IMG/VR virus record: IMGVR_UViG_3300030117_007501
Location: 94,283-158,282 of that record
DNA length: 64,000 bases
DNA from: a virus
Reading direction: 5' to 3' (one strand)
Shown: positions 21,291 through 46,515 of the stretch, one piece after another
Numbering within the stretch: position 1 is the first letter of the stretch
Layout of the letters: the number at the start of each line of letters is the position of its first letter
Translations under genes and position numbers: made by a program
The notes under the pieces: model-generated
Databases searched by the model: none
Told to the model about the DNA's origin: nothing
The model's input: only the letters and a program-made list of their open reading frames with translations

Positions 21291-23087
21291 ATGGCAAAAA
21301 AGAAGATTGTTCCAATAGATTACACTAGTCGAGATTTCGATTCTATTAGGAATGATTTGATAACATATGTGAAAAGATATTATCCAGACACGTACAAAGA
21401 CTTTAACGAAGCTTCTTTCGGATCTCTTATGTTGGATACCGTATCGTACGTTGGGGACATGCTCTCCTTTTACTTAGATTACCAGGCAAACGAGTCATTT
21501 TTGGAAACCTCTATAGAGTATGATAACGTAGTTAAGCACGCAAGGCAGATGGGGTATAAATTTTCTGGAACTCCGATGACTTATGGGGAGTGCACCTTTT
21601 ATATTCTAATACCAGCCGCTGCAGGTACAGTTACTCCTGATCAGAGATATATACCCACATTGCTTAAGGGCACGCAGGTAACCTCTCCCGCAGACACTGT
21701 TTTCACCTTAAACGAGAATGTTAATTTTGCTGACCCTAGTAACGAAATGGTTGTCGCAAGAACTGACGCGAACGGCGCCCCTACATATTTTGCTATCCGT
21801 GCGGAAGGGCAAGTTGTCTCCGGAGACTTGATGATAGAAGAGGTAGAGATTGGCGACTTTATGAGGTTCAACAAGGTTGAGCTAGCAGGTTCAAACATAT
21901 CCGAGATAGTGACTGTGATGGATTCACTAGGTAATGAATACTATGAAGTGGATTTCTTGTCACAAGATGTAATATATAAAGAGATAGTAAACAGAGGAGC
22001 ACACAGAGAATCAGTCCCCAGTATAATGAAGGCATACCCAGCCCAGCGCAGGTTTGTTGTAGAGGTTGAAAAGGGAGTAACCCACCTTCAGTTTGGGTAT
22101 GGATCAGATTCAGAACTAACTAGCAACTCTGTTGTTGATCCTTCAGAAGTTGTTTTGAATGTGCATGGTAAGAACTATGTAACCAACACGTCTTTCGATC
22201 CAAAAAACCTAACCTCCACAGACAAGTTTGGTATTGCACCATCCAACACAACATTGACGGTGGTGTATAGAAGAAACACCAATGAGAATTCAAATGTGTC
22301 AGCAGGAGTTTTAAATAAGGTTATAAATGTAGACTTGTATTTTCCAGAACGAGCCTCGCTAGATAGCGCAAAGATTCAATTTATTTCATCGAACATAGAG
22401 TGCACAAACGAAAGCCCAGTAGTTGGGCACGTATCTCTACCTTCGACAGAAGAAATTAAAAGGAGAGCAATAAACGTATTTGCGACGCAAAACAGAGCTG
22501 TCACTAAGCAGGATTATGTTACTTGCGTTTATGCAATGCCTTCTAGGTTTGGTGCTGTCAAGAGATGTGCTGTATACAGAGATAATGACGAACTTAAGAG
22601 AAACTTAAATTTGTATGTAATATCTGAAAACTCTACTGGGCAGTTAGTTGCAACGAACTCTTCAATAAAAGAAAATCTGAGAACTTGGCTTAATGAAGTC
22701 AGGATGATTGGCGATACAATAGATATATTGAATGCGAAAATAGTCAACATAGGCATAGAGTTTGAAGCAGTGGCTCAAGACGGCAGCGACAAAAACGCAG
22801 TACTGAATAACGCAATTCAGGCATTGTCTGAGAAGATGACAAAGATACACAGGGACATAGGTGAGCCTCTTTACGTAACAGATGTTTTCAGCATCCTTAA
22901 AGATGTCGAAGGTTTGCTGGACGTTACAGACGTTAGAATAGTGTCCAAGTCGGGTAGTTCTTACAGCGAGAATTCCATAAGCATAAGAGAGAACCTTTCA
23001 CCAGACGGAAGATACTTGCATATTCCTTTCGACAGTATATTGGAAATTAAGTTTCCTTACACGGATATTGTAGGAGCTATTAGATAA
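21291..23087 (+). CDS. gp6: baseplate wedge subunit, T4 gp6 / baseplate J-like
   Basis: DYTSRDFDSIRNDLI, DFNEASFGSLMLD, QANESFL..S, LQFGYG, QNRAVTKQDY; follows gp25. Confidence 0.9.
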   Translation: MAKKKIVPIDYTSRDFDSIRNDLITYVKRYYPDTYKDFNEASFGSLMLDTVSYVGDMLSFYLDYQANESFLETSIEYDNVVKHARQMGYKFSGTPMTYGECTFYILIPAAAGTVTPDQRYIPTLLKGTQVTSPADTVFTLNENVNFADPSNEMVVARTDANGAPTYFAIRAEGQVVSGDLMIEEVEIGDFMRFNKVELAGSNISEIVTVMDSLGNEYYEVDFLSQDVIYKEIVNRGAHRESVPSIMKAYPAQRRFVVEVEKGVTHLQFGYGSDSELTSNSVVDPSEVVLNVHGKNYVTNTSFDPKNLTSTDKFGIAPSNTTLTVVYRRNTNENSNVSAGVLNKVINVDLYFPERASLDSAKIQFISSNIECTNESPVVGHVSLPSTEEIKRRAINVFATQNRAVTKQDYVTCVYAMPSRFGAVKRCAVYRDNDELKRNLNLYVISENSTGQLVATNSSIKENLRTWLNEVRMIGDTIDILNAKIVNIGIEFEAVAQDGSDKNAVLNNAIQALSEKMTKIHRDIGEPLYVTDVFSILKDVEGLLDVTDVRIVSKSGSSYSENSISIRENLSPDGRYLHIPFDSILEIKFPYTDIVGAIR

Positions 23088-25750
23088 TGGCAATAAAAAG
23101 ATACATATCAAATTCTGACACAACAATAACAAATGCATTCAAATCAGATTTGCTGAACAGGGGTTCTAACGCAAACATGGGACAAAGTGACATACTGGAA
23201 ATGTTCAGTATATACGCTCAGTCGACGACATCCTCCTTAGAACAGAGTAGGATTCTTATGAAATATCCTATTGCTGATATCTTGGCAGATAGAAACTCTG
23301 GAGCAATACCTTCAAGTGGAAGTGTCAATTTTTACTTAAGGGTTTTTAATGCCGAACACGGACAGTCGGTACCAAAGAAATACTATGCAGACATTGCTCC
23401 TATCGCCGCTGCGTGGGACGAGGGGCATGGACTAGACATGGAGGGCTACCTAGATAATGGATCAGCCTGTTGGGTATCATCATCCGATGATGCAGTAGCT
23501 CAGGTGGTGAAGGTTTCCTTTCTGTCTGACACTAGGGCAAGTTACGGGGCATCTAAGCACGTATCCGTATATAATGGCAGAGGCCAAAGACAGAATTATT
23601 GGTTCAAGACAGCGGGTGGAGATACTGCACCAACGCTAACAGGTACAGAGTATGAAGTAGACATTCAAACCGCCGCAAACAAAGCGGCTATAGCTTCTAC
23701 GTTTAAGTATCAGGTGAATCTCACAGCAGCAACATCCGGTATTACAGCTGCGTTTAGTGGTAGTAGCACCTCAGTGGTTCTTTTGACAAACGATGTTCTT
23801 AACGAGGTTTCTGAGCCTGTCACATCTGATGGGATGAGCGCAGTCTACACTGCCGACGTAGAAACGTTTGGAAAGAGTGCGCATTTGTGGGAAGAGCAAG
23901 GAGGAGACATATACAAAGAAAGCAATGTTAAACATACTACTCTGCCCGTATATAGTCAATATTTTGAAGACGTCGAAGATTTGGAGGTTGATGTGACTTC
24001 TCTCGTGGAGGAGTGGCTCACTACCGAGGCAGCAGGTGACGTACTAGCTAACAAAGCGACAGCAGAAATAACATTTTCAGGACAGCCAACAGACGGCTCG
24101 AAAATAACACTAGTCAGCACCAACGGAAAATCAGTAACGTATAATCTTGAAAACGGAACAATAACTGGAACGCAAAATGCCAACAATTCAGCAGAGGTAA
24201 ATGTTGATACCGATGCAAACACCACTACAATGGCAGCTGCCTTCGCCGCAGCGGTAAGATCAGTAAGGGGACATAGGGACGAAATAATTGTCGACAACAA
24301 TGCGGCAATAGTCAGGCTAACTCAGTCTCTTGGTGGTTTCGGAGGCAACAGAAAGGTGGATAGCAACGGAGCAGTTCAGGCTACTTTTTCAAATAGCGGA
24401 TTTTTCAATGGAGGTGTCGGACTGGTAAACAACGGAATGATGCTTAAGTTGTCGGGCTCTTATGAAGACGGATCTTTGGAGAAGACATTTTATACTAAGA
24501 AGTTTTTTGCGAGAGGTTCTGAGTTCTTCTTTAAGCGCCCAATGATAGAAGCTCGTTTTGACGATTCTAAATTGGATGACAGAGGAAATTTTCATGTTAG
24601 CAGTTCTTTGATATCTGGCGCCGAAAACATGGAGACACTATATCTCTATAATAACTACAAAGGAACGTTGCGAGATATTCCAACAGTCACGGTGATAAAC
24701 AAGGCTACTTTGGAAATGACATTTATTTCTGCAGCCATCGATGGAGGCACGCTAAACTTGGTAGCTTCTGATGGAACTAGTGTAACCTTTACCGCGAGAG
24801 ATCACGATCACGCCCAATTGGGAGGCGGCTCAGTCAATGCGGCAGTAACTGCTGCAGGTGCTGTGACGTTTGATAGGGGCAATCTGGGTGCTGACGACGC
24901 CGCAGACGCACTATTGGCTGCTTCTCAATTTGCTGCAGCAGTAAACATGGCAGGGCACAACATAAGTGACAAAATCACGGCTGTCGCGGAAGGTGCTAAG
25001 GTAACACTAACTCAGGTGACTGCCGGACACACTGGTAACACCGCTGTCACAGACGCAGCAAACTGGGATAATGGAGTTTCTGGCACTACACCAGCTAATT
25101 TTTCCGGCGGTAGCGGAGGCATATATCTTAGGTTGTTCGATGCGACTACTGGAGACGAGCTGGAGGCTAAGCCGAACTATCCAGTAACTGGTGGCTGGGA
25201 TTCAACGGGAATATACACTGCCTCTTTCGCATTGGAAACTACTGCCTCTACGGTGCAAGATATATGGCTAACAGAGGAAAATCCCGAAGGAGGAGGCGCT
25301 TATAAGCAAATTCAATACTATACTGGCTCCTTTTCTCCCGTCACCTATGGTGCCTCGATGTCAGCGGCAAACTACGACTCAGATTACGTACTTAAAATAA
25401 CAAACCTCAGATCTTCATATACGATAGAGGAAAAGCCCAGATTTAGAGTATACACAAGGAAGAGGAACTGGCAACCCAACATTTATACTGTTGCCAGAAA
25501 TGCTGCACCTATCAACATAATTGAAAATTCTTATTATAAAATAACTCGAGAATCTGATAACCTAGATGTTATAGACTATGGAACCGGAAGCGTCAATCAC
25601 ACGAGGCTTTCGTATGATATGAGCGGCAGTTATTTTGATTTGGACATGTCCTTGTTGGAAACTGGCTATTCTTACATGGTTTCTTTGGTTTTCAAGTTGG
25701 ACGGAGTTTACAAAGAGCAGAATGAGAAATTTAAGTTTAGGGTTGAATAA
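23087..25750 (+). CDS. virion structural protein with three inserted repeat modules
   Basis: SDTTI..., SRILMKY, WDEGHG core interrupted by related ~120-aa Ala/Thr/Gly-rich modules; baseplate context. Confidence 0.65.
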   Translation: MAIKRYISNSDTTITNAFKSDLLNRGSNANMGQSDILEMFSIYAQSTTSSLEQSRILMKYPIADILADRNSGAIPSSGSVNFYLRVFNAEHGQSVPKKYYADIAPIAAAWDEGHGLDMEGYLDNGSACWVSSSDDAVAQVVKVSFLSDTRASYGASKHVSVYNGRGQRQNYWFKTAGGDTAPTLTGTEYEVDIQTAANKAAIASTFKYQVNLTAATSGITAAFSGSSTSVVLLTNDVLNEVSEPVTSDGMSAVYTADVETFGKSAHLWEEQGGDIYKESNVKHTTLPVYSQYFEDVEDLEVDVTSLVEEWLTTEAAGDVLANKATAEITFSGQPTDGSKITLVSTNGKSVTYNLENGTITGTQNANNSAEVNVDTDANTTTMAAAFAAAVRSVRGHRDEIIVDNNAAIVRLTQSLGGFGGNRKVDSNGAVQATFSNSGFFNGGVGLVNNGMMLKLSGSYEDGSLEKTFYTKKFFARGSEFFFKRPMIEARFDDSKLDDRGNFHVSSSLISGAENMETLYLYNNYKGTLRDIPTVTVINKATLEMTFISAAIDGGTLNLVASDGTSVTFTARDHDHAQLGGGSVNAAVTAAGAVTFDRGNLGADDAADALLAASQFAAAVNMAGHNISDKITAVAEGAKVTLTQVTAGHTGNTAVTDAANWDNGVSGTTPANFSGGSGGIYLRLFDATTGDELEAKPNYPVTGGWDSTGIYTASFALETTASTVQDIWLTEENPEGGGAYKQIQYYTGSFSPVTYGASMSAANYDSDYVLKITNLRSSYTIEEKPRFRVYTRKRNWQPNIYTVARNAAPINIIENSYYKITRESDNLDVIDYGTGSVNHTRLSYDMSGSYFDLDMSLLETGYSYMVSLVFKLDGVYKEQNEKFKFRVE

Positions 25751-28700
25751 TGTCAATTAAAAACCTTTTTGAAGAAAAATCAAAGATAGTAGCAAAGACT
25801 ACGGTAAAGGACTTGACTGAGAGTTTGGAGTCTGAGGACTACATCTTTGTTCGAGATAAGAAAATTAAAAGATTTCTTCCAACGGTAGATTATTCTAAAC
25901 CAGAGAATTTTGCTAGATACGGATTGGCAGAAAGATACTATACGGACTCTATAGAGAGAATATACCAAACTTATCCTTACGATGGGACGTTCTACGAAAA
26001 AGAAGCTTGGCACTTAAGTTCTTCATATTTAGATAATCACATATTTAGGGTTGACTACCCTAGAACAAATGGTTTTGCTCTCTTCTCTCCTTCGGGCTGG
26101 GGCACTCAATCCGCCAATCACGATAATTATGGACTGCCAAGTACTGCTGAGTATGTGTATATTAAGGGTGGGCCCCATGCAGATCCATATGGCGACATCA
26201 AGGGCGAAAACAGTCTGGCAAACATATATGATTCCGCCAGCTATAGAGAATCAAATCTTAAAATTGATGGCGCCACAGGTAATACTGTCGAGTTTTGGCT
26301 CAAAAAAGACGGATATGACACTTCGAAAACTAGATTAGAAGTCCTATTTGACGCTACTGTTTCGGGTTCAACGCCTGGAGACGCAGATTACGGAAGATTA
26401 AGAGTTACAATAGACAATAATCCAGCTAGTTCTGCTTTTTTGATAACATATCAATCAGGAAGTTTAGGGTTTATAGATACTGCGATAGGTGGATCCTCAA
26501 TAACCGAGGATACAATCGCAGACGGAAAGTGGCATCATTATGCTTTTACATTCAAACACAACCCTACAACTGAAAAAATTGACTCAAACCTGTACATAGA
26601 CGGTGCATATAACGCAACTGTTTCTGTTGCAGCTGCGACATTTGGAGCAATTGATGGCAACATAGTTGCAAATATCGCAGCACTTGTCGACTCTCCAACG
26701 GCAGCTAGCTCAGCTGGGCTTGGTTACGGAAAGTTGTCTGGTTCGATGGATGAATTTAGATTCTGGAAGGTAGAGAGGAATGCTAAGGAAATAGGAGAAA
26801 ACTGGTTAACAAATGTTGGCGGTGGAACAAACAAGTACGAACACAATACTAAGCTTGGCGTGTATTATAAGTTTAACGAAGGAATAACAACAGATGCAAC
26901 AACAGACTCGGTAGCTTTGGATTACTCTGGCAGAGTGTCAAACGGCTCATGGGTGGGGTACAGTTCTTCATCGAGAAACACCGGATCTGCCATGGTTGAC
27001 TCTGGTAACGCATTGAGGGAATTTCAAGATCCTATAATTTATAGCAATCATCCAGACGTTGTATCTCTTTTGGATGAAAAAAGACAACTAGGACAATCTC
27101 ATGATTATCAGAATACTTCTGCGCTATATTATTCTCTGCCAACTTGGATAATAGAAGAGCAGATGAACACCCATACGGAAGACAAGAGTACTCTTTCGGA
27201 TATGATGCAGATAATGGCTAGCTACTTTGATACATTGCATTTGCAAATAGAGGCTATCACGTCTCTGAAAGATGTTAGCTATAGGGATTACCCATCCCCA
27301 ACACACGTAAGTGGTTCGGATTTTGCACCATTCACAGAAAAACTATTAGAATCTAGTGGCTTCATTGCTCCGGATCTGTTCGCAGATGCCGAAGTGTTGG
27401 AAAAGTTTGGTACCAGAAACAAGGACGGACAGTTTGAATTTGAACTACATCAAGTTAAGAACTTCATATACAGAAACATATATAATAACCTTACAAACAT
27501 CTATAAATCAAAGGGTACTGAAAAGTCCTTCCGGAATCTTTTTAGATGTTTCGGGATAGACGAGGAACTTATTAAGCTAAATGTGTATGCGGATAATCAC
27601 ACTTACTCGTTTTCTGATACGTTTTTGCACAAATCTCATAAACAAAAGGTGGTGGATTTTAATTCTCCCGACAGATATGGGGCTACAATATTTCAGTCTG
27701 GCTCTTTAAATCCATATAGAGCACACTACATTTCAGGCTCTGGCACCACAGGGGAAACCGATGTATCAACAACTGTTGAAGCAGATATCTTCTTCCCCAG
27801 GAAGGAGAGGTATGGATCAAAGTATTTTCAAGAGACGGGATTCATCACATCTTCGTTGTTTGGCATCCACACCCCATCAACAATAGCGGGTGATATGACG
27901 TGGGCATCAAATGATTTCGCCAGCATCCAGGCTCATGTAGTGAGAACATCAGAGTATGAGTCGGATGCATATTTTATGCTAACGAGTTCAGCGGGTATAA
28001 TACCAGAGTTGACGTCACCTATAGTGCATGACGTCTATGGGGATAATAAGTGGAACATTTCCTTTAGAGTCAAGCCTGCACCTCACATGGCAGCATCCCC
28101 CAGTGGCTCTATGGATGGCTCTGTGGCTGCACAAGCCGCAGCCTTTGTTGTCGAATTTCGAGGAACAAGGTATATCCTAGATAGTCTCGAAGATAGCTTT
28201 CATGTAACTGGTGCAGTTTCGAGAACTAATGCTACAAGGCTTTGTTTTGCACCCAAGACATTGTATGCGGGGGCACACAGAGTAAACTACACAGGCTCAG
28301 TGTCGGAGTACTCGGATGTAAAGATATCGAATATACGATATTGGAATGCTTATTTGTCAAACGATGAGCTGGATTTTCACTCTAAAAATCCAGATAACTT
28401 CGGTAGAATGCACCCATCAAAGCCAGAGTATGTGAATAAGTCGGATATTCTTGATAGCAACTACAGGGAAACAGACACTCTCGCTCTACATTGGGATTTT
28501 GATAGAGTAACCACGTCAGATTCTTCAGGAGAATTTGTTGTAGTAGATGCCTCATCCGGCTCGGTTGGTGCTCTTAGCACTTTTGACGGCATGACAAAAA
28601 GACACCATGTTGGCGTCGGGTATGGATTTCCAACTAGCAGCACCTCGGTAGTATCGACTATGTGGACAGCGGGACTTCAACAAGCGCTACCAGAGAATGT

Positions 28701-31700
28701 TTATAGCTCAGACATGGTAAAGGCTTTGGATTCTGACAGTGAAGTGTTCAGATATGACTCGCGCCCAATAAACTACTTCTTTTCTTTCGAAAAGAGCATG
28801 TATCAGACTATTTCTGCAGAAATGCTTAAGTTCTTTGCAACAATAAAGGACTTTAACAACCTCATCGGAGAACCAGTAAATAAATACAGACAGAGCTACA
28901 AGGGCATGCAAAAGCTGAAAGAAATGTTCTTTAGGAGGGTGGATAACACTCCAGACATAGAGAAGTATGTGGAGTACTACAAGTGGTTCGACTCAGCCCT
29001 CTCCGTGATGATAGATCAGCTCAAGCCGGCAACTACTAGATTTTCTGAAGACATAAGAACGATGATAGAGAGTCACGTTCTGGAAAGAAACAAATACTGG
29101 ACTAAGTTTCCAACTATAGAGATGAAATCGGTAGATCCAATTGCCCAGCTACGCGGCGGTGCGGCAGAGCATAGAGGATTTCATTGGGGTAGAGATCATG
29201 CCCCGCTGCCCTCTAGCCCCAGAAAGGAGTCTGAAAATTGCTCATGGTGGGCGAATATGGCAGAGCGGACAACTACGGAGATATTCCGTGATGCTCACAT
29301 CTCTGATGAAGTCCGCGAAGCACGCGAAGCAATAAGAAGAATAAAGATTACAAAAGTTTCGGGCTCTTCGTACTATACCCGCGCTTTGTCTCACCCATAT
29401 GTTTTGGATATGAAGCGAGACAGGGTAATAGGTTCGATGGAGGAAAATAGAATACTTAATTTATATGCCATGGCATTGCGCCCTGGCACAACTTCCGGAT
29501 TGTCTATTGCAGCATCCAGTGTTCAAGAGTTTTTAGATTGTGATGATTCAACTCCGACAACCAAGAGGAGAATAAGAGCAGAAGCGGTATATTTGGGCGA
29601 TAATTCATATACTGACACTGGCACAGACTTGGCTCTGCCTTTTAGATTCTACAGTTCGTCCATCGGTGACGGGTATATATCTGGCTTGACAACGTTTAAG
29701 GCAGGAGTGTCAATAACAAATATTCATCATGATTCTTACAACAATGAAATAATAGCACCACTTCAGGGTGTCTATACATCTCAGCACGTTGGGGGGAATG
29801 CTAATAGGCATGTGAAGGCAGGAGAGACAGATCCCCAATTACGCCCAGAAACTTATAAGTTGCAGATTTCCTCGGGACAGATTGTACTAGTCCACCAAGG
29901 TTTCGAAACGCCGCGCACTTTTTGCGCCCGTGAAGGACTCGCAAAGCGTCCGGTAAACATAAGAAACATACAAACTACTACAAGTTCCGCTCATGTCGGG
30001 AACTATCAGTATGATTATGATATCGTGTTTACAGGCGGCAGGGCATCCAACAATAGAGATTTTATAAAGAATTCTGGCTACGCTGACTCAACATATAGTC
30101 CTGTGTCTTCTGAATTTTTTGATGACTTTGTTGATTTGCCAAAAATACAAAGAGAAAGAACAAATCACGTATTGGTGAATAGATTTTCATCCCCAGGAGG
30201 GCCCGAAACAGCAGGCGATGCTGATGGTGGACAGGGATTGGACAGAGAGACGTCAGAATTTTCAATATACAATTCTATGAACTATAGAAACTCTATAGTA
30301 AGAAGTGATTTGGATACCCTTTATGCAGAGCACTCTAACCAGTTTGGAGCTAGAAGCGGAAGCGTGCATATATCGAACACTTACGAATTTATGTCAGGAT
30401 CCGGTGCTGGGTACGCTTCAGTTCATATGACTAACAGAAACAGTGCCGCAAGAAAAGAGTCGGTGGGAACAGTTAATTTCAACACCAAAGCTGTTTTACT
30501 TGACGGCTCGACAGAATACTTGCGCTTAGATGCAGCAAGAGCAATATTCACAGATAATAATGAGATTTCTTTGTTTGCGTGGATAAAACACCCAACCGTA
30601 TCAAACGCGAATGCCCATGTTATATTCTCTATACATGATTCTTCGGGAGGAAATAGGCACCTATTTCTCTTAAGGGGTACCGCCGGCACAGACGGCACAC
30701 TTCAGTTTTACCAAAATTCCACTGGTTGGCAAAAGGTATCCAACACAAGGATAGACGATGACAAGTGGCACTTGGTTGGATTTGTATACGAGGGAACAGG
30801 AAATACTCTCAAGCTGTATTTGGATGGGGAATCTCAAGGGGATGCCTTGACGGTTACAAATATAGCATCCATAATGGCAGGCACAGACTTGGTAAGTATT
30901 GGCCAAGAGTGGGACGCCGGCCCAACGGCTAGTGACTTCTTTGATGGGCATATTGCAGATTTAGCAATATGGAACAAGTCGTTAACGCAAGCGCAAATTA
31001 GAGAAATCTATTCAGACGGCTTCTTTAAGGGCCCTCATGACTTGCTTAAGCACACTGCAAATGCAAACTTACAAGCATGGTACAGAATGGGAGACGGAGA
31101 TAATGGCTCTGGCACACCGGACAGCGCCGGAGGAACAATCTTTGACATGAGTGCAAACTCATACAATGCAACGCCAGTTTCGGGCCCGACTATTGTATCT
31201 GTCCCCTCTCTTCCGGGCGAGACTCACGTCATCGAAGATAGGCTCGAGAGGGATAACTTTTTCGTGCAACGTCCGATACCTAGAAACGAACTTCAATATT
31301 CATGGGTTACTGCATCCTCTATAGAGACTACCAGTAGTTTTCCTGGTTATGTACATGAGTTCTCGATACCTTCTGGAAATACTGACTCTGTATATCAGGA
31401 TGAAATTCGATTCTTAACAGCTAGTGAAAATAACGCAAACAATGACTTTGTTGGGTTGAATAGGATTATTAACAGAGCGTTAACATCCAGCACCAACACA
31501 ATCGGCAACAGTTTATCAACCACTGAAGGCTCTGTGAACGACATATTGCTTAACAGGCAGGGCCCTTACGGATGGCCATCATGGAAGCAGATGCGGGGAT
31601 CTGAACATCCCATAGCAAGATTGCATAGAAGAAACAACATAATATCAATACAGTCGCGAGATGGCACTCCAAACCAGAGAACCATGAATATCTATGATTG

Positions 31701-35132: not shown

Positions 35133-36038
35133 TTGTCGTTTTTTAATAAAAAAGAAGATGTCATAGACATACAATTGACTCAATATGGCAAACTTCTTCT
35201 TTCAAAGGGGAGGTTTAAGCCGGAGTATTATTGTTTTTTTGACGATGATATTTTGTATGACGCAGATTATGCAGGAGTACCAGAAAGCCAAAATGCCGCA
35301 GAGGATAGGATAAAGGAGACTCCTTATGTTCGCCCTCAAAATGCATTTTATGGAATAGAGACAAAATATAGCCAGGCAAATATAGATATAAGAGAAGGAG
35401 AAGCAGAATTATATCAGCTGCTAAACCTGACTCCCGACAACGAAGAGAGGGAGAACGCTTTAAGGTACCCCCTTTATACTGGAATATTAGGAGAGCAAGA
35501 GGCTACAAAAGTAACAGTAAACGCTCTTAGAGCGCCGTTTACGGGCTCTCTGAGCTATTACAGTGGCTCAAATGTGTCTTTACCAATCCCACAGTTGACA
35601 TGCGAATCACAGTACATAATTATGAAAACTAGGCTTTCTGCAGAGGAATATCAGCTTAGTGAGGATGTAATGCAGGATGAAATAATATTTGAAGATGGTA
35701 CAGCGTATAAGTTGTTGAGCGGCGCCCCAATGCAATTTAAGCTACTTGAAGAGAACGCGCCTTACTTGGCAGAAAATTTTGAAATTGAAGTTTTTGAGGT
35801 GGTTCCTGGCACCGCAACAGACGAAGAGCAGATATTGTTGCCTCTATTTTTCGAGAATTGCGCAAACCCTATAGCAGATTTAAACAACTATTTCGAAATA
35901 TCTGTTGATAACCTTGCCGACGCAGGCGAGAGAAGAGGGTTGTTTGTTAGTCTTCCAACTCAAAGATCTATGGTACCTTATGTCAACACCGACACATATA
36001 GGAAGTCCATAGTAAGTACTACAGAGGAGTGTGAGTAA
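35133..36038 (+). CDS. virion structural protein (tail-collar/fibre anchor-like N-terminus)
   Basis: TTG start with GAGG SD; N-terminus DIQLTQYGKLLLSKG.F...YCFFDDDILYD resembles ORF 43109. Confidence 0.6.
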   Translation: MSFFNKKEDVIDIQLTQYGKLLLSKGRFKPEYYCFFDDDILYDADYAGVPESQNAAEDRIKETPYVRPQNAFYGIETKYSQANIDIREGEAELYQLLNLTPDNEERENALRYPLYTGILGEQEATKVTVNALRAPFTGSLSYYSGSNVSLPIPQLTCESQYIIMKTRLSAEEYQLSEDVMQDEIIFEDGTAYKLLSGAPMQFKLLEENAPYLAENFEIEVFEVVPGTATDEEQILLPLFFENCANPIADLNNYFEISVDNLADAGERRGLFVSLPTQRSMVPYVNTDTYRKSIVSTTEECE

Positions 36039-39000: not shown

Positions 39001-39358
39001 TATTTATGATACTGTACCTATGCAGATAAGGAGCATAGTGAGGGCAGGAGTTGAAACGCCCGGAGTGCTAGCTAATGGTGAGGTTTCTCCGTTCTTGTTT
39101 GGTATGATGGCTTCCGTCGAGGAAAAGGTTGACACTTCGTTTGGAAAGAGTGGTACAAAATCTGGAGAAGGAGATTTTAAACCAGTTCGGAACGCCCTGG
39201 CGGGATCCCGGACTTCTAGCACTACACCTAGCACTGGAAAGAAGTATAAGTTGTGTCGTCTTGCTCCCTATGAGAACAGAGAAGCAGGTATATCCAGAGC
39301 TAAATCTATGAGCAGTACGGTAGTTATGGATGAGTATTTTTTAGTGGAGGTAGGCTAA
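36041..39358 (+). CDS. hypothetical virion protein (1105 aa)
   Basis: Long ORF with GGAG SD within the structural operon; no recognisable family. Confidence 0.6.
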   Translation: MASIIKYEGITPKVYVKNITLTPHRLPNSIVDNRWDATSEGVTIVLDMCIKQQITASGLSEYHNLFALMQNIDIFVVQSFTPSQSGRFGNTVAPSNLGSVLANPRARVQSFLENSRSMTQTLNALTAMTDKVQFAKINLLETRSTVLDSGDPRAYVSASLLEIPFQVSFFIPDANPTSLEYRVFTHIDAEKAITQGGELASPDPAHLYSLNQTGGSVTYQSVIRGSKVNERAFVYLDGAGNQWLGEVHQMPDTDQIMKGAVHGDYEGANALLVKREVYNSKINDLRPLALPPVEDRFDGGDVYYDAHEYQRQFRMRRLTARAYGMRNIREGAGSLREAMIERLMSPTNRRTEYGGARFDSELILTPTLGRRCNFLFTVDWAQIVKYQSRLAKFYTSFPQSSFSRVLSSSLIRSMKLFRRRMTDMPIGVDKMGNSAHKIMDENEIPTLVASYSETIQPQGEGALVSTNQLSEVNIDWSSSGGFYYRSFGGTDADIANVNYGKYQYYLEVEVVDGIDSIMEGHKSELEESLRFMKQFLERASIPAYVPGYNGTDYRNATPDQLAEYLNAGARLQGSYDYDRLRYTEGYLEDIERETSGLAAAVRRYLAAYRIIYGSADSGDNNMLYNIINPRRGASPESIQNFIMCLQSLLSKIEDILQYNTARGKDEGAKTPAPSRYPEKNVFKFDIQFDEIYDASVVNNPSVTYFSDYTNVNNGLKIVKMEDRVREEYVQFFGDSQALVNGSSADIRKNGIKLTPNEYHISSPEIMKNSTFANKNDFGVGYRTNSPEIGFISTAGNFGNAEDTRLRALVAPMYTGGQNMASNVNLSHRTPFVPSRDMVFSGDEASSFRINSQAMLQTRTNFLQNLESTYINIDKIHDLGVTLETPSYLRDTTWLQDFDDADEFISDPKILASSVSGSGENLCLNDRIARRSLPTSPRNLMASPASKFVNLLSRRLTTNIDGVYESENVGTIRGVQERLESIRETNPYIYDTVPMQIRSIVRAGVETPGVLANGEVSPFLFGMMASVEEKVDTSFGKSGTKSGEGDFKPVRNALAGSRTSSTTPSTGKKYKLCRLAPYENREAGISRAKSMSSTVVMDEYFLVEVG

Positions 39359-39359
39359 G

Positions 39360-42300
39360 ATGGCAGCAGGCAATTACGGCGACGGCGGAGCCGGTGGCGG
39401 CATGGGCGGAGGTAACAATTCTGGAGGCTCTATCCCTATCGCGAACGTAGGTGCCGTCGTCACCGCTAACAACGCAGCACGCGCTGCATCAACCGAAGGA
39501 GCCCGCCCCCCTGAAGTGACTCGCGCAGGGGCTGATGCGGTATCAAACATGAATAATGCCCTACAGTTCAGTCCTGTAGAAGATCCATGTTCTTTGGGGA
39601 ACCTAACAGAACCAGTACAACTAGAAAGAGTATTCCCAGATCCCGAACAAGAAGAACCAGTTGAGATTGTGTATCCCGTCCCACCAGAAGAAACTGTGTT
39701 CCTAGTTCCTGATGACTTAATAAGAACAAACTACGACAGGGTTTCCAGAACAAAAACGCTGGTTAATCAGGGGTTGTATTTTGATGTTTCTGAGTCTATG
39801 ATGACTATTAGAAATTCAAATACTTCATTCTTGGGATTCACATATGTGAGAGATTTGTATAGCCGATATCCCGAACGCCCAAATGACAATTCAATGGGGA
39901 TGTACGGCAATCTATTCCCCTATCTTGCGTACCGAACTCCCGAGGCGTATCCGGGGTTTTATTTGTATCCGATAATGTCAAACTTGGCAAATCAGGAAGC
40001 AGCCGATGACGTCGCGCGAAACAACATTGATACTTTGAGATACACGCTCCGAAGATCATGGATGAGACACAGAAATGGCGCGGCAATTTATCAAAAGTCT
40101 ACGCCACGATCGGCACTAGAATCCCCTTTCGACATTTATGTGGTTGATAGTGATGCGCGAATGTCATCTAGGACTAGGATAAACCTTCTTCCGAAATCTA
40201 TATTTTTCCCAGCCATCCCCCCAGCTCCATTCCATTTTAACCACATGGGAGTAGCAGTTCACCAAGACGCCCAATTGACTGAGGCTGACTGGAATGCTTT
40301 TAGTTTTTCGAAATTGGACGCATACGTTTTAGGCCCCCTGCATCCAGACTACGATTCCTGGAATGCGATAAGTAAGCAAGTTTTTGCAAAGCCTTTGGTG
40401 CCGATTGGTAGAGAGTTTAAGGATCATGTGCATGATGTATCCATGCCTTTTTATGAAAAAGAGCTGGATAGCTTGCCTCCTGGTAGAATATTGGATGTTC
40501 AAGTTAGGGTTGGAAGTAATTTTATTTCCGATAATTATAGAAATTACAACGGAAGCGAAACTAATATGAGGGATGTATATTCTTCATATCGAATGGACAA
40601 GGAGCCCGGTGATGCCGTCTATCGTCCCGCTGGACAAAAGGTTAAATTTACTCCATACAATGTTAAGGAGTTCGAAAATGTGGCATCGGAAAAGAAAAAT
40701 CAGTTTCCAATGTATGTTAACATAGAGTTTTCCACCCATCATGGCACAAAGGTTTGTCGATTTATAAAAAATTCAAGACTAGAAGAAAGAGTGATGAGTA
40801 CCATGGTTAGGTCTTTCAATACGAAAGCACTAGAAGACAGAGAAAGGACAGCTCAGTATGCTCGATCAGGAATAGAAGACATATATGCAGAAATATTAGA
40901 TGAAAGCGCGGGAAGAAGTCGTCGTATTAGGAGATCCCGGGAAACACCAAGAGAAAACGACAAGTCAGTACAAGGGCAAGAGAGAAGTACGATAGATGTA
41001 TTGAGATGGTTTGAGTCCTTGTCCGGACGTGGAATAAACACCCGATCCACTGTTGGGTTCCCTCTAGGAATCCAAGATGACGAAGAGTGGAACGCTGTAC
41101 AAGAGGCAGGCGGCGGCATGGATGCGGCGCTGTATGCCCTAAGAAAGGCAGTGTTCATCAATGCAACAACAAAACTAATACAGTCTAAATTTAGAAATTA
41201 CACAAAACTGCTGCAGGGAGAGAAAGCATACTCTGAAACAATCGGATACAGGATAGATAAGTTTTCCGTAATTAACGGAGAGGAGAGCTTGATACAGAGT
41301 TTTTATATCCTGGACAATGACGAAACGGATAGGGTTAATTTTGTAGATTCGCAAGTAAAGTATAGGCGCGAATATGTGTATAGAATTTATGCTTATAATT
41401 TTGTAGTTGGCACAAAGTATCGATATTCGAAATTGACAACTGCCGACATAGAATACGCAGAAGGCGGTCAACGAGGAAGTCCAGAGGTAGCAACAGCGAC
41501 TCTGGAATCTAACGCTAGTTATGTATATGATGCATCTCGCGACGAATTTGGCCCGTACCGCCCAGTAGCTTATCGCAACGATGAGCCAATATATGCGGAT
41601 ATTCATCCGAAAACTCCAATCCCTGATGATTTAGTGGGGCAAATACAGAAGCTGTCAGTACAGCACCCCTTTTATGACTTGGACAACCCTCCAGCTGGCT
41701 GGCGTGATATGTTAGTGAGAGGAAGGGAACCAACCCTAATAGGCAACCCAGAAATAGGTATTCCAATATGGACTGTTCCGGTTTCTAGGGGCACAATATC
41801 TCTTGCCCGCCCCCCGAGCGAAGAAGAGATAATGGCTGAATGGAGAAGCAGAGAGTCCGCAGCTGCAGCTGTATCAGCTCTTCTCGTGTACCCGCGAGTT
41901 GCTGAATCGCTGAACGACACTCAAATAAACAGAAAACATTGGTGGAATGACAGACAAGACTTAGATCCTGTTACTGATACGTTAGGCAATCCGGTGTTTG
42001 ATTTGACGGCACCAAACGTCTTTGGCCACGCTCGTAGTGGAGGAGTGACTCTGGAGCCTTTCTACGTTGATGTGGAATCAGAACCACATGCTGTGTTTAT
42101 TGAAGTTCCGTTTTTTGAAAAGAGGGTTACCATGGAGGACGCTCCACCCGTCTTCCCGCAGGTGCATATCGTTCCTTTCAAGGGAGAGACAGATGTTGTA
42201 AGAATAAATCTCACGTCTAATTCGGGAGAGTACAATATGGAACCAATAGCTCTCAACGAAGAAGACGAAGAAATATTCGAAGCAATCATTCAGGCGCAGG

Positions 42301-43037
42301 ATCCTGCAGACGGAAAAATTAAATTCAAGAGCGATGATCCTCCAGTAAGCTACGAAGTATTCCGCATGACGCAAATGCCAACTTCTGTAAGAGACTTTGC
42401 AGATTCAAAAATAGCGGATGTTTATGCCACTGGAACCGGAGGAGTGTACGACGATGCTATAGAGCCAAATGTGGTATATTATTATATATTCAGAGCAGTG
42501 GACGCCGCAGGACACGTTTCAAACCCAACTGACATATATCAGTGTCAGTTGGTTACTACGGAAAATGGTATGTTCTTGGATGTGACTACATTGTACGAGC
42601 CTGATATGATGGCAGATAAGGTTGAAAAGAAGTCGCTTATGAAGACATTTACGATAAAGCCTGCACTGATACAGAAGATGTTCCAAACAGGAGAGCAAAA
42701 TAGAGATTTAACCGGTGATGAACCCCTCGGTATGCCACCCCCAGGAGGCCCTGAGATTGGACTATTTCAAAAATCGATTTGGGATAAGACATACAAAGTG
42801 AGGATAAAATCGAAAAATTCCGGAAAAACTTACGATATTAATTTAAAGTTTAAGAAAAAGGTGGTAGATTTAACAGAGGATGAACTGCAAGAAGTGACAC
42901 CAGCAGAAAATCCTCTTAACACCCCACTGGGCGAAGGGTCTGAGTTCTCGCGCACCGGGATTCTCCCTGTCGCGCGCACCGGGGGGTTTGAGTTTTTCAG
43001 CGATGGAGGGAATCCCAAGTCGAGAGGCTTGAATTAG
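39360..43037 (+). CDS. hypothetical virion protein with FN3/Ig-like segments
   Basis: FVDSQVKYRREYVYRIYAY and YDDAIEPNVVYYYIFRAVDAAGHVSNP are FN3-like strands; Gly-rich N-terminus; GGAGG SD. Confidence 0.6.
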   Translation: MAAGNYGDGGAGGGMGGGNNSGGSIPIANVGAVVTANNAARAASTEGARPPEVTRAGADAVSNMNNALQFSPVEDPCSLGNLTEPVQLERVFPDPEQEEPVEIVYPVPPEETVFLVPDDLIRTNYDRVSRTKTLVNQGLYFDVSESMMTIRNSNTSFLGFTYVRDLYSRYPERPNDNSMGMYGNLFPYLAYRTPEAYPGFYLYPIMSNLANQEAADDVARNNIDTLRYTLRRSWMRHRNGAAIYQKSTPRSALESPFDIYVVDSDARMSSRTRINLLPKSIFFPAIPPAPFHFNHMGVAVHQDAQLTEADWNAFSFSKLDAYVLGPLHPDYDSWNAISKQVFAKPLVPIGREFKDHVHDVSMPFYEKELDSLPPGRILDVQVRVGSNFISDNYRNYNGSETNMRDVYSSYRMDKEPGDAVYRPAGQKVKFTPYNVKEFENVASEKKNQFPMYVNIEFSTHHGTKVCRFIKNSRLEERVMSTMVRSFNTKALEDRERTAQYARSGIEDIYAEILDESAGRSRRIRRSRETPRENDKSVQGQERSTIDVLRWFESLSGRGINTRSTVGFPLGIQDDEEWNAVQEAGGGMDAALYALRKAVFINATTKLIQSKFRNYTKLLQGEKAYSETIGYRIDKFSVINGEESLIQSFYILDNDETDRVNFVDSQVKYRREYVYRIYAYNFVVGTKYRYSKLTTADIEYAEGGQRGSPEVATATLESNASYVYDASRDEFGPYRPVAYRNDEPIYADIHPKTPIPDDLVGQIQKLSVQHPFYDLDNPPAGWRDMLVRGREPTLIGNPEIGIPIWTVPVSRGTISLARPPSEEEIMAEWRSRESAAAAVSALLVYPRVAESLNDTQINRKHWWNDRQDLDPVTDTLGNPVFDLTAPNVFGHARSGGVTLEPFYVDVESEPHAVFIEVPFFEKRVTMEDAPPVFPQVHIVPFKGETDVVRINLTSNSGEYNMEPIALNEEDEEIFEAIIQAQDPADGKIKFKSDDPPVSYEVFRMTQMPTSVRDFADSKIADVYATGTGGVYDDAIEPNVVYYYIFRAVDAAGHVSNPTDIYQCQLVTTENGMFLDVTTLYEPDMMADKVEKKSLMKTFTIKPALIQKMFQTGEQNRDLTGDEPLGMPPPGGPEIGLFQKSIWDKTYKVRIKSKNSGKTYDINLKFKKKVVDLTEDELQEVTPAENPLNTPLGEGSEFSRTGILPVARTGGFEFFSDGGNPKSRGLN

Positions 43038-43108: not shown

Positions 43109-44080
43109 ATGGCTTTTTTGGATAATTCGGGAGATATCATTCTAGATGCTGTCTTGACTGATGCGGGACGCCAGAGGATGGCAAGAGGTAATTTTAAAAT
43201 AGTTAAGTTCGCTTTGGGAGATGAAGAGGTTAACTATGAACTCTTTAATTCAAATCATCCTAGCGGATCCGCGTACTATGATTTGGAAGTCATGCAAACT
43301 CCAATTCTTGAAGCTTTTACAAACAACACCGCTTCAATGAAATCTAGGTTGATGACAATAGCAAGAACAAACATACTCCATCTTCCAATATTGAAGGTAA
43401 ACGAAATAAGAGGCGGGAACGACACAAGATCTAATTTGGTGGGTTCCGGAGACAATGCTGGCATGTTTGTTGTAACTGCAGACAGAGCAACAGAGGAAGC
43501 TCTAATTTCAGAATCTCAGGGAGTAATGTTCGGATTCAATGTGAATGAGGACGGAGGCAGACATATATTGGTTGATCAGGGGCAGGACACAGCTGGCGAT
43601 CCACCTATTACTCAAGCAATGGATGCAGACTTGGTTGAAACTCAGTATATTGTACAGATAGATAATCGACTAGGAAGAATCGTTTCTCGCGATGGCGCAG
43701 TTCAAGCTGTGTCTTTCGTCGATGACGATAACATCGCAACGTACTATTTCGGGTTAAATGCCGGGCCTATAGTTTCTTCAGTTGGTTTTACCGATGACGG
43801 CACTAACTTAACAATACAAAGAGATTCTGGCCCTAATGCGATACCTTTTACGGGCCCTACTGGTACAAGACTTTCTTTCAAGATAGCCTCGTCAGCCCAG
43901 TTGCGCTCTAGTTCCGCTCTCTTAACTAAGCTTGGCGGCAGCTCGACAGTCACTGTCGTTAAGGGTAACGCCGCAGGTTCTGATGCAACTTGCTACTACG
44001 CAGACACAAACATAAGGGTTACAGGAGTCACAACTGGCTATAGCTTGGACATACCTGTAAGATTCGTACGAAAGACATAA
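43109..44080 (+). CDS. virion structural protein (tail-collar/fibre anchor-like)
   Basis: DAVLTDAGRQRMARG.FKIVKFALGD resembles the start of the P2 gpH-type N-terminal (DUF3751-like) domain. Confidence 0.6.
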   Translation: MAFLDNSGDIILDAVLTDAGRQRMARGNFKIVKFALGDEEVNYELFNSNHPSGSAYYDLEVMQTPILEAFTNNTASMKSRLMTIARTNILHLPILKVNEIRGGNDTRSNLVGSGDNAGMFVVTADRATEEALISESQGVMFGFNVNEDGGRHILVDQGQDTAGDPPITQAMDADLVETQYIVQIDNRLGRIVSRDGAVQAVSFVDDDNIATYYFGLNAGPIVSSVGFTDDGTNLTIQRDSGPNAIPFTGPTGTRLSFKIASSAQLRSSSALLTKLGGSSTVTVVKGNAAGSDATCYYADTNIRVTGVTTGYSLDIPVRFVRKT

Positions 44081-44093: not shown

Positions 44094-45239
44094 ATGGCAT
44101 CTGTTTTTAAAACATTTTTGAATAATGATATAACTTCGACAAGGACTCTTCTCCACGAATCGATTCCTTTGACTGGCTCTCTCGTATCGGGAACATACGG
44201 CGTTAACGCAATAGCTCTTGGTAGCGAACCAAACATCAAAAAGTACACACACGGCATGTTTCAGGGTGTATACGATTATCCGTACTTAAGTTCGTCAGCG
44301 AACCATATATTTGACATTACGTGTGGATTTTCTTCTGAGTCACCGTACTCAGGCAGCGTGAAAGTAACATCTCAGCACGACAAAAAACTGAACATGTACA
44401 ACCAGATGGCTCAACTTCTTATGGGGCACGACATTAGTGGTTCGATTCGTCCATTTGATGCTGATGGAAACTTGGTTGGAGGAACAAAGATTAATGAAGC
44501 TTTCTTTTTAAACTTTTCTAGACTCCTCACGAAAGACGAGATAAAGAAAGGATCGTTCAATCTTGAGCTTGGGGTTGAGAGCGATTACGACGAGCGCCCA
44601 AACAAGCATTTCACAAAAAGAATAAAGATAACCGATATTAGTGGTTCGAGTGGTTTCTTTGTTAACTCCCCAGTTGGAGAATATGGCATACTCCATGCTC
44701 AAACTTCGGATGGTTCTACTATAAGACTTACCAATGAAACAATAGGCACAGCAACGTCATATCCTGCGTGTGGGTTGATATTTTATCAGGCTGGCATAGT
44801 TGTTATTTCTGGATCAGTCTTCAACGACACTCAGCGCGGCGGTATTTTGCACAACACGAATACTGATGCCATGGAGATGATAGACGGTTTTGGATATGAG
44901 GGGTTTGATTTCTTTACAGGCTCGAGCATTGATGTTGTCGCCGACAAGATAAGAACTCGTATATACAACATTTCATTTAACAACACAACAGAGTTAAATT
45001 CTGCAGTATATTTTTGCAGGGCGAGCCACAATGAGTTCAATTATAGCTCAAACCCAACATATTTGACAGGAAGCCAGATAAGAGTTAAGAACCAAGCTGC
45101 TGATTCTCCTCGTTCTTATGTTACGACTGTCGGCCTCTATTCGCCAGATAATGAGCTTTTGGCTGTTGCAAAGCTTTCTGAACCACTCAGAAAGGATCCT
45201 ACAAATGAGTTGACATTAAGAGTTCGATTGGATTATTAA
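44094..45239 (+). CDS. virion structural protein, paralog of 45289..46515
   Basis: IKKGS, EFNYSSNPT and C-terminal YVTTVGLYSPDNELLAVAKLSEPLRK...RVRLDY. Confidence 0.65.
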   Translation: MASVFKTFLNNDITSTRTLLHESIPLTGSLVSGTYGVNAIALGSEPNIKKYTHGMFQGVYDYPYLSSSANHIFDITCGFSSESPYSGSVKVTSQHDKKLNMYNQMAQLLMGHDISGSIRPFDADGNLVGGTKINEAFFLNFSRLLTKDEIKKGSFNLELGVESDYDERPNKHFTKRIKITDISGSSGFFVNSPVGEYGILHAQTSDGSTIRLTNETIGTATSYPACGLIFYQAGIVVISGSVFNDTQRGGILHNTNTDAMEMIDGFGYEGFDFFTGSSIDVVADKIRTRIYNISFNNTTELNSAVYFCRASHNEFNYSSNPTYLTGSQIRVKNQAADSPRSYVTTVGLYSPDNELLAVAKLSEPLRKDPTNELTLRVRLDY

Positions 45240-45288: not shown

Positions 45289-46515
45289 ATGTCAAATTAT
45301 AAAAAATTCAGAATAGACGATGTATTCTATAATACGGTAAAAACTTACCCAAAGTACGATATAAATATATATCACAATCAAGTTTATATAAATAACGAAA
45401 TTGTACGCCCCGGAGAGCGAGCGACTACTGTCAAGATGTTGAGTCAGGGCGAAATAAGCCTTCATGAACTAAACATAGATAGGGGCGCACTTGACAAGAT
45501 ATATCCTTTTGTAACGAAGGATGGCGCCCGAACTGGTATGAAGACAATCTCAACAACTAATTTTGACAATTCTGATCAATTTGTTTATGGCGATAGGATG
45601 ACAGACATATATCCGTATACTGCCAGTATAAACAGGATAAGCGTGCCCGCAGGCTCAGACGTTAGTTCATTCACTTTCGAGAATGGTGAAGGGGACTATG
45701 TTCCCGTTGCAAACAATAAGAAGTATATAAGATCGCTTAAGCCTACGTTGGAGGAATATAAGAGATTTAGTACTCATTATGCTTATTCGTCCTCGTACGG
45801 AAACAAGGGAACTCAGAAAGTCAATATGGTTTGTATACCTTCTATTTTTTACGGCTCATCAATAAAGAAAGGCTCAGTTAAGCTAAGTTTTTATGTTTCT
45901 GGCTCGCTCCAAGCTCAGCTCGTAGATTCACGAGAAAACGGTGAGTTGCTTCAGGTGAGCGGCTCTTCATCTAACGACGAAGTGGCTGGCGTGGTGTTGT
46001 ATAATGAGGGCATATTATTACTAACCGGATCTTGGGATTTGAACTCTGAACACACAGCCACATACAATGGCGATTCAAGCCCTGCAGTCAAGCCTTCTTG
46101 GTTGCACTTTGGTGCTGGAATGCCTTACGTTGGCACTGGCACGACGACAACGCTTATATCTTCAAGTTTTGGAATTGAGTTCGAAGGCACGACTACGATA
46201 CCAACTATAACGATGCTGGCTCATGCACCAAAGGGAGAATATAATTACTCTAGCAATCCAACATTTGTGAAGTCCGGCTCTGTGGGTGGAGTAAGTTACG
46301 ATAGCGTGCAGTACAGGGAAGACGCTGGAACCATAAAAAACATTACCAAATCTCCCTATACCAATCACACTGCTTCTTTCAAAAAGCAAACTTATATCTC
46401 TAAGATAGGAATATACGATAAAAATAAAAATCTAATAGGAATAGCAAAGCTGGCAAACCCGATTAAGAAGACGGAAGAAAAAGACTATACTTTTAAATTG
46501 AAGCTGGACTTTTAA
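45289..46515 (+). CDS. virion structural protein, paralog of 44094..45239
   Basis: IKKGS, EYNYSSNPT and C-terminal YISKIGIYDKNKNLIGIAKLANPIKK...KLKLDF. Confidence 0.65.
   Translation: MSNYKKFRIDDVFYNTVKTYPKYDINIYHNQVYINNEIVRPGERATTVKMLSQGEISLHELNIDRGALDKIYPFVTKDGARTGMKTISTTNFDNSDQFVYGDRMTDIYPYTASINRISVPAGSDVSSFTFENGEGDYVPVANNKKYIRSLKPTLEEYKRFSTHYAYSSSYGNKGTQKVNMVCIPSIFYGSSIKKGSVKLSFYVSGSLQAQLVDSRENGELLQVSGSSSNDEVAGVVLYNEGILLLTGSWDLNSEHTATYNGDSSPAVKPSWLHFGAGMPYVGTGTTTTLISSSFGIEFEGTTTIPTITMLAHAPKGEYNYSSNPTFVKSGSVGGVSYDSVQYREDAGTIKNITKSPYTNHTASFKKQTYISKIGIYDKNKNLIGIAKLANPIKKTEEKDYTFKLKLDF

Follow-up and report, generated by a model that had tools for sequence, protein, structure and literature searches.

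An [ST]GS tripeptide enriched in baseplate proteins of an uncultured marine T4-like phage, a candidate surface tag for O-glycosylation

The window analysed here, a stretch of 64,000 nucleotides, is the last 64 kb of IMG/VR record IMGVR_UViG_3300030117_007501, a linear virus record of 158,282 bp from an uncultured marine T4-like phage. Five proteins of its baseplate module, of 887, 3123, 301, 381 and 408 amino acids (aa), are enriched in the tripeptide [ST]GS, that is, serine or threonine followed by glycine and serine: pooled, they hold 41 copies for 6.83 expected, a sixfold excess (Poisson p 6e-19). This enrichment is real. Our reading of it, which we put forward tentatively, is that [ST]GS is a short surface tag read in trans and most likely an O-glycosylation site.

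The [ST]GS excess in this phage and its relatives

Expected counts were derived from composition and the p-values of individual proteins from shuffles, the Poisson test being applied to the pooled set. The shuffle p-value is at most 0.0045 for every one of the five proteins (Table 1), and the excess goes far beyond their Ser/Gly/Thr composition. When all 8000 tripeptides are ranked over the five proteins, SGS comes first (24 vs 3.85, p 5e-12; 6.2-fold), TGS second (17 vs 2.98, p 2e-8; 5.7-fold) and GSV third, and nothing comparable to this SGS/TGS ranking is found in the other proteins of the window. Outside the enriched set, the open reading frames (ORFs) of the whole record hold 26 copies of [ST]GS for 25.7 expected. 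Both serine codon families, TCN and AGY, are used at both serine positions, and the nine-base words that encode the motif differ; the mixture of codons indicates that the signal is selected at the protein level, and together with the differing words it rules out an origin at the DNA level.

An earlier note on this DNA had drawn attention to the motif. Its hand counts for the five proteins turn out to be exact, the copies are dispersed and non-tandem as it described, and the 0-1 copy that it gave for each replication or metabolic protein holds for every other ORF of the window. It had also seen no copy in a 4029-aa protein, which is correct, the depletion being non-significant (0 vs 2.2 expected, P=0.11). 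Among the related triplets that it called common, TAS (8 vs 2.8) and SSS (12 vs 5.2) are weakly enriched (p ~0.008 each); SAS and TSS are not. The span 23087-46515 over which it had placed the motif also includes two large unenriched proteins, of 1105 and 1225 aa.

The excess recurs in a sample of 39 relatives from IMG/VR, which share only 30-40% identity with our phage in their tail proteins. Counted by family, it reaches 7.5-fold for the 887-aa protein (55 vs 7.4), 4.3-fold for the 3123-aa protein (639 vs 148), 5.7-fold for the 301-aa protein (43 vs 7.5 in 39 homologues), 5.0-fold for the 381-aa protein and 6.8-fold for the 408-aa protein (90 vs 13.2). The family of a neighbouring 323-aa protein shows 2.2-fold (29 vs 13.0), the untagged families of the 1105- and 1225-aa proteins stand at 0.39-fold and 0.79-fold, and all other ORFs at 0.77-fold. 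Each of the 39 relatives is tagged, with an excess of 2.3- to 7.1-fold, and the excess is strictly family-specific across them.

Among 50,697 deposited phage genomes (INPHARED), the only relatives are Microcystis phage Mel-JY01, four Flavobacterium immuto records, Rhodothermus phage RM378 and one 484-kb uncultured megaphage, and BLASTP finds matches in immuto and Mel-JY01 for only 25-31 of the ~158 ORFs of our phage. Immuto and Mel-JY01 resemble our phage in their gp6-like wedge protein, in their 323/381/408-type proteins, in a nuclease-GT4-GT4 synteny described below and in bearing the tag on tail and fibre proteins; they differ from it in their other sugar genes and in that many of their tagged proteins are non-homologous to those of the window. 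Scans of their whole proteomes indeed place the tag in proteins that have no BLAST similarity to the window, the remaining proteome being at expectation. In immuto these are a tail spike of 1053 aa (26 vs 5.9), a fibre protein of 211 aa (8 vs 1.5), another protein of 373 aa (12 vs 1.3) and the 709-aa tail sheath (record 146982-149111; 7 vs 1.3), in which all copies fall in residues 62-275, presumably the part that is outer and variable in myovirus sheaths. The sheath of our phage is unenriched. In Mel-JY01 the tagged proteins are of 1336 aa (11 vs 1.4), 718 aa (9 vs 0.6) and 508 aa (13 vs 2.5), the last annotated as a 'structural protein'. RM378 has a weaker excess, in one contiguous module.

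The 508-aa protein of Mel-JY01 adjoins a 1226-aa FkbM-methyltransferase/GT1 fusion, near a cytidylyltransferase-like gene (record 3065-8430); this is a second, separate glycan-type locus beside a tagged virion protein.

Control phages lack the excess. T4 has 8 copies for 13.3 expected in its structural proteins and 19 for 27.8 in its whole proteome, and the marine cyanomyovirus Syn9 has 58 for 51.6, its 6076-aa and 2391-aa structural proteins being at expectation; neither phage has an ORF at p<0.01. The megaphage (LR756508.1, 588 ORFs), which has a 381-like protein, contains no enriched module: its total is 119 vs 85.8, and three of its ORFs reach p<0.01, which is below chance expectation.

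Form, structural position and conservation of the motif

The full motif is hydrophobic-[ST]-G-S-hydrophobic. A hydrophobic residue occupies position -1 in 30/41 copies (p 4e-8), which bears out the V/I/L/Y/F that the earlier note had often seen there, and position +3 in 22/41, for a background of 31%. Close variants are not enriched in the five proteins: SGT is at 1.3-fold and TGT at 1.7-fold, and AGS, NGS, GGS, SGA, SGN and SGD show no excess. At the conserved sites of homologues, position 0 is Ser or Thr in ~95% of cases, rarely Asn or Asp, position +2 is Ser in ~85-90% and Thr in 5-7%, and the glycine is replaced mainly by Ala, Ser or Thr. The general O-glycosylation sequon of Bacteroidota, D-(S/T)-(A/I/L/V/M/T), has an Asp just before the acceptor; it does not fit here, the -1 residue being mostly hydrophobic and Asp not common at that place.

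AlphaFold (AF2) models of moderate quality were obtained for the 381-aa protein (mean pLDDT 60.6) and for residues 290-960 of the 3123-aa protein (mean pLDDT 60.7), exposure being inferred from secondary structure (DSSP) alone. In both models, all motif sites lie in loops beside beta-strands. Sites 183 and 239 of the 381-aa protein occupy a hairpin loop and the end of a strand; the other contexts are a long hairpin loop of low confidence and a pre-strand loop at pLDDT >90. The models predict loops and not buried strands; buried motifs would, for the earlier note, have spoken against a modification tag.

The folds that carry the tag are unrelated. Besides a LamG/pentraxin-like sandwich they comprise an alpha/beta domain, the shafts of fibres and, in the sheath of immuto, its outer part. 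The sandwich is found in the 3123-aa protein, which matches PF13385 Laminin_G_3 at 107.7 bits (cut-off 27.6) and whose residues 290-960 are modelled as a confident beta-sandwich with a Foldseek match to pentraxin 3flp (E 3.5e-6); by profile and model, its domains belong to the LamG/ConA-like lectin fold. In these LamG-like domains the motif occurs at residues ~330 and ~848 in the context L-SGS-MDEFRFW. The glycine of site 330 probably coincides with the conserved Gly of the LamG strand 'x-G-x-hydrophobic-D-E-hydrophobic-R-hydrophobic-W', and the Ser/Thr looks as if it were overlaid on this fold-conserved glycine. At site 239 in the 381/408 family, the homologous turn reads ISGSV or LTGSW in the marine clade and NGE, NGK, AGE or TDE in immuto, Mel-JY01 and RM378. 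These substitutes imply that the fold can do without the Ser/Thr flanks, while the glycine belongs to it.

Conservation was followed in 113 homologues of the 381-aa protein, 60-99% identical to it: the motif is kept at five of its seven sites in at least 73 of them, and at sites 183 and 239 in 109-110. In the 3123-aa family, the motif residues of our phage are only slightly more conserved than other Ser/Thr/Gly. With a tolerance of eight residues, ~10 of the 22 sites are conserved or semi-conserved and 10-12 are lineage-specific, for 4 by chance. Since every relative nevertheless shows the excess, the density of the motif is held while its sites turn over.

The glycosyltransferase pair and the reading of the tag

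A 13-gene glycan cluster begins ~9 kb upstream of the window and has its 3' end inside it (Table 1). Gmd scores 477.5 bits with TIGR01472, above the cut-off, the Fcl-like protein 266 bits with NF047922, below the cut-off, and the two DegT proteins 373.7 and 235.7 bits with PF01041. No protein of the cluster has a transmembrane segment, and a hydropathy scan of the whole genome gives seven ORFs with at least two hydrophobic segments and none with the ~10 expected of a flippase or polymerase. Two overlapping genes of the cluster, GT4-1 and GT4-2, encode proteins with the E-x7-E motifs EGFGLGTLE and EGFGLPLFE. By profile, the pair fits the retaining GT-B enzymes of CAZy GT4 (Pfam Glycos_transf_1), GT4-1 scoring 45.9 bits with PF00534 for a cut-off of 26.4, and GT4-2, which has E-x7-E, 25.1 bits, just under the cut-off, and 26.5 bits with PF20706. 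The closest PDB relative of GT4-1 is the chlorovirus glycosyltransferase B736L (3oy2; E 1.1e-8 over ~310 residues).

Immuto and Mel-JY01 preserve the synteny of a trio, a PD-(D/E)XK nuclease and the two GT4 genes, and RM378 preserves that of the GT4 pair; because so few other ORFs have matches there, the pair belongs to a core gene set. Identity between our phage and marine relatives is 57-62% for GT4-1 and 42-48% for GT4-2, well above the tail proteins. The five large contigs of relatives that were tested all carry GT4-1, GT2 and nucleoside diphosphate (NDP)-sugar dehydratase genes, with varying sets of GT2 and sugar genes. GT4-1 and GT4-2 are predicted to form a heterodimer: their modelled complex has an ipSAE of 0.88 in three runs, for 0.00 in the best control, a mark reached by 58/80 solved complexes and 2/110 mismatched pairs, which may here partly reflect memory of the solved GT-B pair complexes that exist. 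Contacts agree to at least 89% between runs with a partner pLDDT of at least 88, and in the predicted interface GT4-1 packs its C-terminal tail, which is conserved, against residues 254-262 of GT4-2. A pyrimidine hydroxymethylase of the ThyA type (ThyA/dCMP-hydroxymethylase family) is found neither in our genome nor in five relatives, three of them complete, which makes DNA glycosylation via hydroxymethylcytosine or hydroxymethyluracil a less likely role for the pair.

In this small sample, tag and GT4 pair occur together. The seven INPHARED records with a GT4-1 homologue are the same seven that have a 381-like protein. The GT4-2 profile matches immuto (3e-79), Mel-JY01 (8e-66) and RM378 (3e-10), the last combining a divergent GT4-2 with a weak tag, and T4 and Syn9 have neither pair nor tag. 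The untagged megaphage has one GT4-1-like gene and no GT4-2 orthologue, the sole match of the GT4-2 profile falling inside that GT4-1-like gene. No discordant case, that is, a tagged relative that lacks the glycosylation genes, was found among the five large contigs tested, all 39 relatives being tagged; the earlier note would have counted such a relative against its reading. That note had proposed a glycan-shielded virion decorated with sugars made by Gmd, Per, ColD and Fcl. This reading is partly supported; the Gmd/Per/ColD/Fcl set varies among relatives, and the conserved partner of the tag is the tandem GT4 pair.

In the model we propose, the sequence hydrophobic-[Ser/Thr]-Gly-Ser-hydrophobic would mark the outward-facing baseplate and fibre proteins and would be read in trans by a phage factor, without being demanded by any one fold. 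The best candidate for this reader is the conserved GT4 pair encoded upstream, which would act as a heterodimer and, while the tail is being assembled in the cytoplasm, attach a first sugar to the hydroxyl of the serine. Extension of this sugar to a lineage-specific glycan coat, whose role could be shielding, stability or adsorption, would then fall to the variable GT2 enzymes and the GDP-sugar genes (Gmd, Fcl, Per-like, ColD-like), which look like a variable extension kit. It is possible, although we hold this with more doubt than the tag itself, that an abundant clade of T4-superfamily phages, from the sea and from fresh water, has a sequon-directed O-glycosylation of its own that works in this way, the heterodimeric GT4 priming and swappable GT2/NDP-sugar cassettes extending.

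Several observations weigh against this model. In the 381-aa family, six conserved sites explain the whole excess, and sporadic sites appear at about the neutral rate; in the 3123-aa family, long lineage-specific insertions hold 18 copies for 16 expected from local composition, so that fresh gain of the motif is unsupported. Two large proteins of the same module, of 1105 and 1225 aa, are untagged. The hydrophobic flanks and the strand-edge position fit a structural turn or rung too, and the occasional Asn or Asp at position 0 recalls a turn capped by a side chain. Successive copies in fibre shafts are spaced six residues apart, as in TGSLST-SGSLGV-TGSIYY of immuto, and this period is the strongest point for a structural role there. 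On the side of the enzymes, undecaprenyl-linked precursors of the host could just as well be the substrate of the soluble glycosyltransferases, and the co-occurrence of tag and GT4 pair represents one or two independent evolutionary events, both being core traits of one clade.

The most serious alternative, a live rival that we hold less likely than the tag, is purely structural: [ST]-G-S would be a preferred ST-turn at strand ends and hairpins, or a repeating fibre rung, favoured by the tail architectures of this clade and bearing no modification. The flanking hydrophobic residues, the strand-loop junctions of both models, the near-invariance of two sites in the 381-aa family, the Asn/Asp at position 0, the probable match of the glycine of site 330 to the conserved LamG glycine and the hexad periodicity of the shafts all agree with it. 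The same fold, however, does without the motif in immuto, Mel-JY01 and RM378, a 381-like protein is present in the megaphage without an enriched module, and neither T4 nor Syn9 has an enriched ORF, structural proteins included. The motif also appears in unrelated folds and yet is restricted to certain virion proteins, and its density persists while individual sites turn over. A generic turn propensity does not explain why position +2 is Ser and not Thr, or why Ala, Asn and Gly are not favoured at position 0. Finally, the motif glycine gives way to Ala, Ser or Thr and not to Asn or Asp, which makes a turn glycine with positive phi unlikely.

A second alternative keeps the tag read in trans and gives it a reader other than a glycosyltransferase: a chaperone of tail or fibre assembly, an enzyme that modifies the serine in another way, for instance by phosphorylation or acylation, or a surface whose paired hydroxyls bind polysaccharide of the host or water. 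The GT4 pair would then have another use, for instance in glycosylating the host envelope or small molecules. All the evidence for a trans-read tag applies equally to this improbable arrangement, the link with the GT4 pair is one of phylogenetic co-occurrence only, and the pair lies beside PhoH and the PD-(D/E)XK nuclease, outside the tail module. Against it, no kinase, acyltransferase or dedicated chaperone candidate was identified in this analysis, no large modification machinery was seen apart from the glycan cluster, which abuts the tail module, and the strongly tagged structural protein of Mel-JY01 adjoins the methyltransferase-GT1 fusion. As to a compositional or mutational artefact, or the post-hoc choice of one tripeptide among many, the motif and the protein set were indeed chosen by eye and the proteins are somewhat rich in Ser, Gly and Thr, but SGS and TGS hold the first two of 8000 ranks and survive Bonferroni correction, serine codons of both families occur, permuted forms of the motif such as SGT and GGS are unenriched, and replication in independent genomes, the 39 relatives and two cultured phages, effectively refutes this reading, to which we leave next to no credence.

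If the tag is read by the GT4 pair, the closest known system would appear, by analogy, to be the glycosylation of mycobacteriophage virions by phage-encoded glycosyltransferases (Freeman et al. 2023, as summarised in PMC12619734), in which the subunits of capsid and tail tube bear their glycans at the C-terminus (PMC12619734). As far as that summary describes it, the likeness lies in the use of the phage's own glycosyltransferases, here two GT4 and three GT2-like enzymes, which would decorate structural proteins in the cytoplasm. The differences concern the site, the target proteins and the enzymes: here a dispersed internal tripeptide is found on five baseplate/fibre proteins, capsid and tube being unenriched, and the phage is marine, with a host of Gram-negative type, and has a predicted GT4 heterodimer and GDP-sugar genes.

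Other systems offer partial parallels. Chloroviruses glycosylate their own capsid at non-canonical sequons, the glycans being N-linked at Asn; B736L is, like GT4-1, a virus-encoded soluble GT-B enzyme, but it comes from a eukaryotic algal virus with no paired second GT4 and no [ST]GS motif. GtfA-GtfB consists of two adjacent GT-B proteins whose cytoplasmic complex acts on the serine hydroxyls of serine-rich-repeat adhesins of the Ser-x-Ser type. It resembles the GT4 pair, an adjacent GT-B pair whose predicted complex scores as given above and whose genes overlap and are syntenic in four lineages. The GT4 pair nevertheless lies outside that family (TIGR02918 15 bits vs a cut-off of 574.6), both of its subunits keep E-x7-E whereas one subunit of GtfA-GtfB is catalytically inactive, and the phage substrates would be single dispersed tripeptides in folded domains instead of long low-complexity repeats. 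The bacterial autotransporter heptosyltransferases (TibC/TibA, Aah/AIDA-I) O-glycosylate, in the cytoplasm, a large number of serines in surface proteins rich in beta-structure, recognizing a short strand-loop-strand context with no strict linear sequon and using ADP-heptose; they differ from the GT4 pair by enzyme family, sugar and the lack of a phage context.

Literature searches gave no description of the [ST]GS motif. If our model is true, phages would have in this motif their first known sequon, and the virion surfaces of the ocean would possess a large layer of diversity that has so far been hidden. The sugar-gene clusters of marine phages, usually read as host-surface 'auxiliary metabolic genes', would become virion-building genes. 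Were tails coated with glycans, host-range prediction, adsorption models, virion stability, the stickiness of virions to marine particles and structural work on tails would all have to allow for a carbohydrate layer, and a short sequon with a two-subunit soluble transferase would make a compact tool for glyco-engineering. Since the tagged phages immuto and Mel-JY01 are in culture, the hypothesis is directly testable.

The baseplate module and its genome setting

Table 1. Features of the glycan cluster and the baseplate module (window coordinates unless the record is named; [ST]GS as observed vs expected, p from shuffles)
Feature	Position	Strand	[ST]GS	Remarks
13-gene glycan cluster	genome 85.3-98.8 kb			Order: PD-(D/E)XK nuclease; two overlapping GT4 genes; three GT2-like genes and four unknowns; Per-like, ColD/RfbH-like, Fcl-like, Gmd
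GT4-1 (437 aa) and GT4-2 (431 aa)	record 86185-88766			Overlapping; upstream of window; E-x7-E in both
GDP-sugar genes	387..4532	+		DegT 4-aminotransferase (Per-like), DegT RfbH/ColD-like, Fcl-like epimerase/reductase, Gmd
4029-aa ORF	8739-20828	+	0	Between M15 peptidase/Gly-rich protein and gp25-like gene
gp25-like and gp6-like inner baseplate wedge genes	20877..23087	+	0 and 1 copies	PF04965 50.9 bits; phrog_219 baseplate wedge 1e-22
887-aa baseplate protein	23087..25750	+	6 vs 1.37, p 0.0025	Directly after gp6-like wedge gene
3123-aa giant baseplate/fibre protein	25750..35121	+	22 vs 4.0	LamG/pentraxin-like lectin-fold domains (predicted)
301-aa protein	35133..36038	+	2 vs 0.10, p 0.0045	
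1105-aa and 1225-aa proteins	36041..43037	+	1 vs 1.16 and 0 vs 0.69	Untagged neighbours; internal negative controls
323-aa protein	43109..44080	+	1 vs 0.39 (own copy)	Weakly tagged family; homologous to immuto and Mel-JY01 genes
381-aa baseplate protein	44094..45239	+	7 vs 0.66	Paralogue of 408-aa gene
408-aa protein	45289..46515	+	4 vs 0.69	Paralogue of 381-aa protein

The window opens with the GDP-sugar enzymes, followed by an M15 peptidase, the 4029-aa ORF, the gp25-like and gp6-like genes and a run of large unannotatable tail proteins, after which come a primase, an SbcC-like nuclease, the large terminase and the portal. On this gene content (wedge proteins, tail run, primase, nuclease, terminase and portal) the phage is placed as a distant member of the T4 superfamily, and the gp25-like and gp6-like wedge genes, as judged from their profile matches, mark the module as a baseplate of the T4 type. 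The late promoter of T4, TATAAATA, has 4 plus-strand matches for ~9 expected, none upstream of genes, and is not in use. The lineage is widespread in metagenomes, the 381-aa protein having more than 8000 database homologues, many of them from Tara and other ocean metagenomes.

Pfam and PHROGs give no match for the 887-, 301-, 1105-, 1225-, 323-, 381- and 408-aa proteins, Foldseek finds no match for the fold of the 381-aa protein at E<=0.001, and PDB sequence searches returned nothing informative on the motif, whether the query was the 3123-aa protein, a profile of the 381 family, the tail spike of immuto or the structural protein of Mel-JY01. The 381- and 408-aa proteins match each other across their C-terminal half (BLASTP 1e-12). 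These tandem paralogues have a common C-terminal domain with the signatures NYS(S/T)NP(T/S) and TT(V/I)G(L/I)Y...AVAKLS.P, of which immuto and Mel-JY01 each have two tandem copies, and RM378 and the 484-kb megaphage each have one. The motif that follows NYSSNPT is offset by one residue between the two paralogues, yet kept.

The 4029-aa ORF has no Pfam or PHROG match and no BLAST match in immuto, Mel-JY01 or RM378. It has two hydrophobic segments, near residues 953 and 1787, and may serve as a giant tape measure or hub, or be a protein that is ejected. At the other end of the tail module, three ORFs of 205, 184 and 320 aa (window 46517-48562, plus strand), the last two with uncertain TTG starts, overlap by 35-55 nt, up to and into the primase gene.

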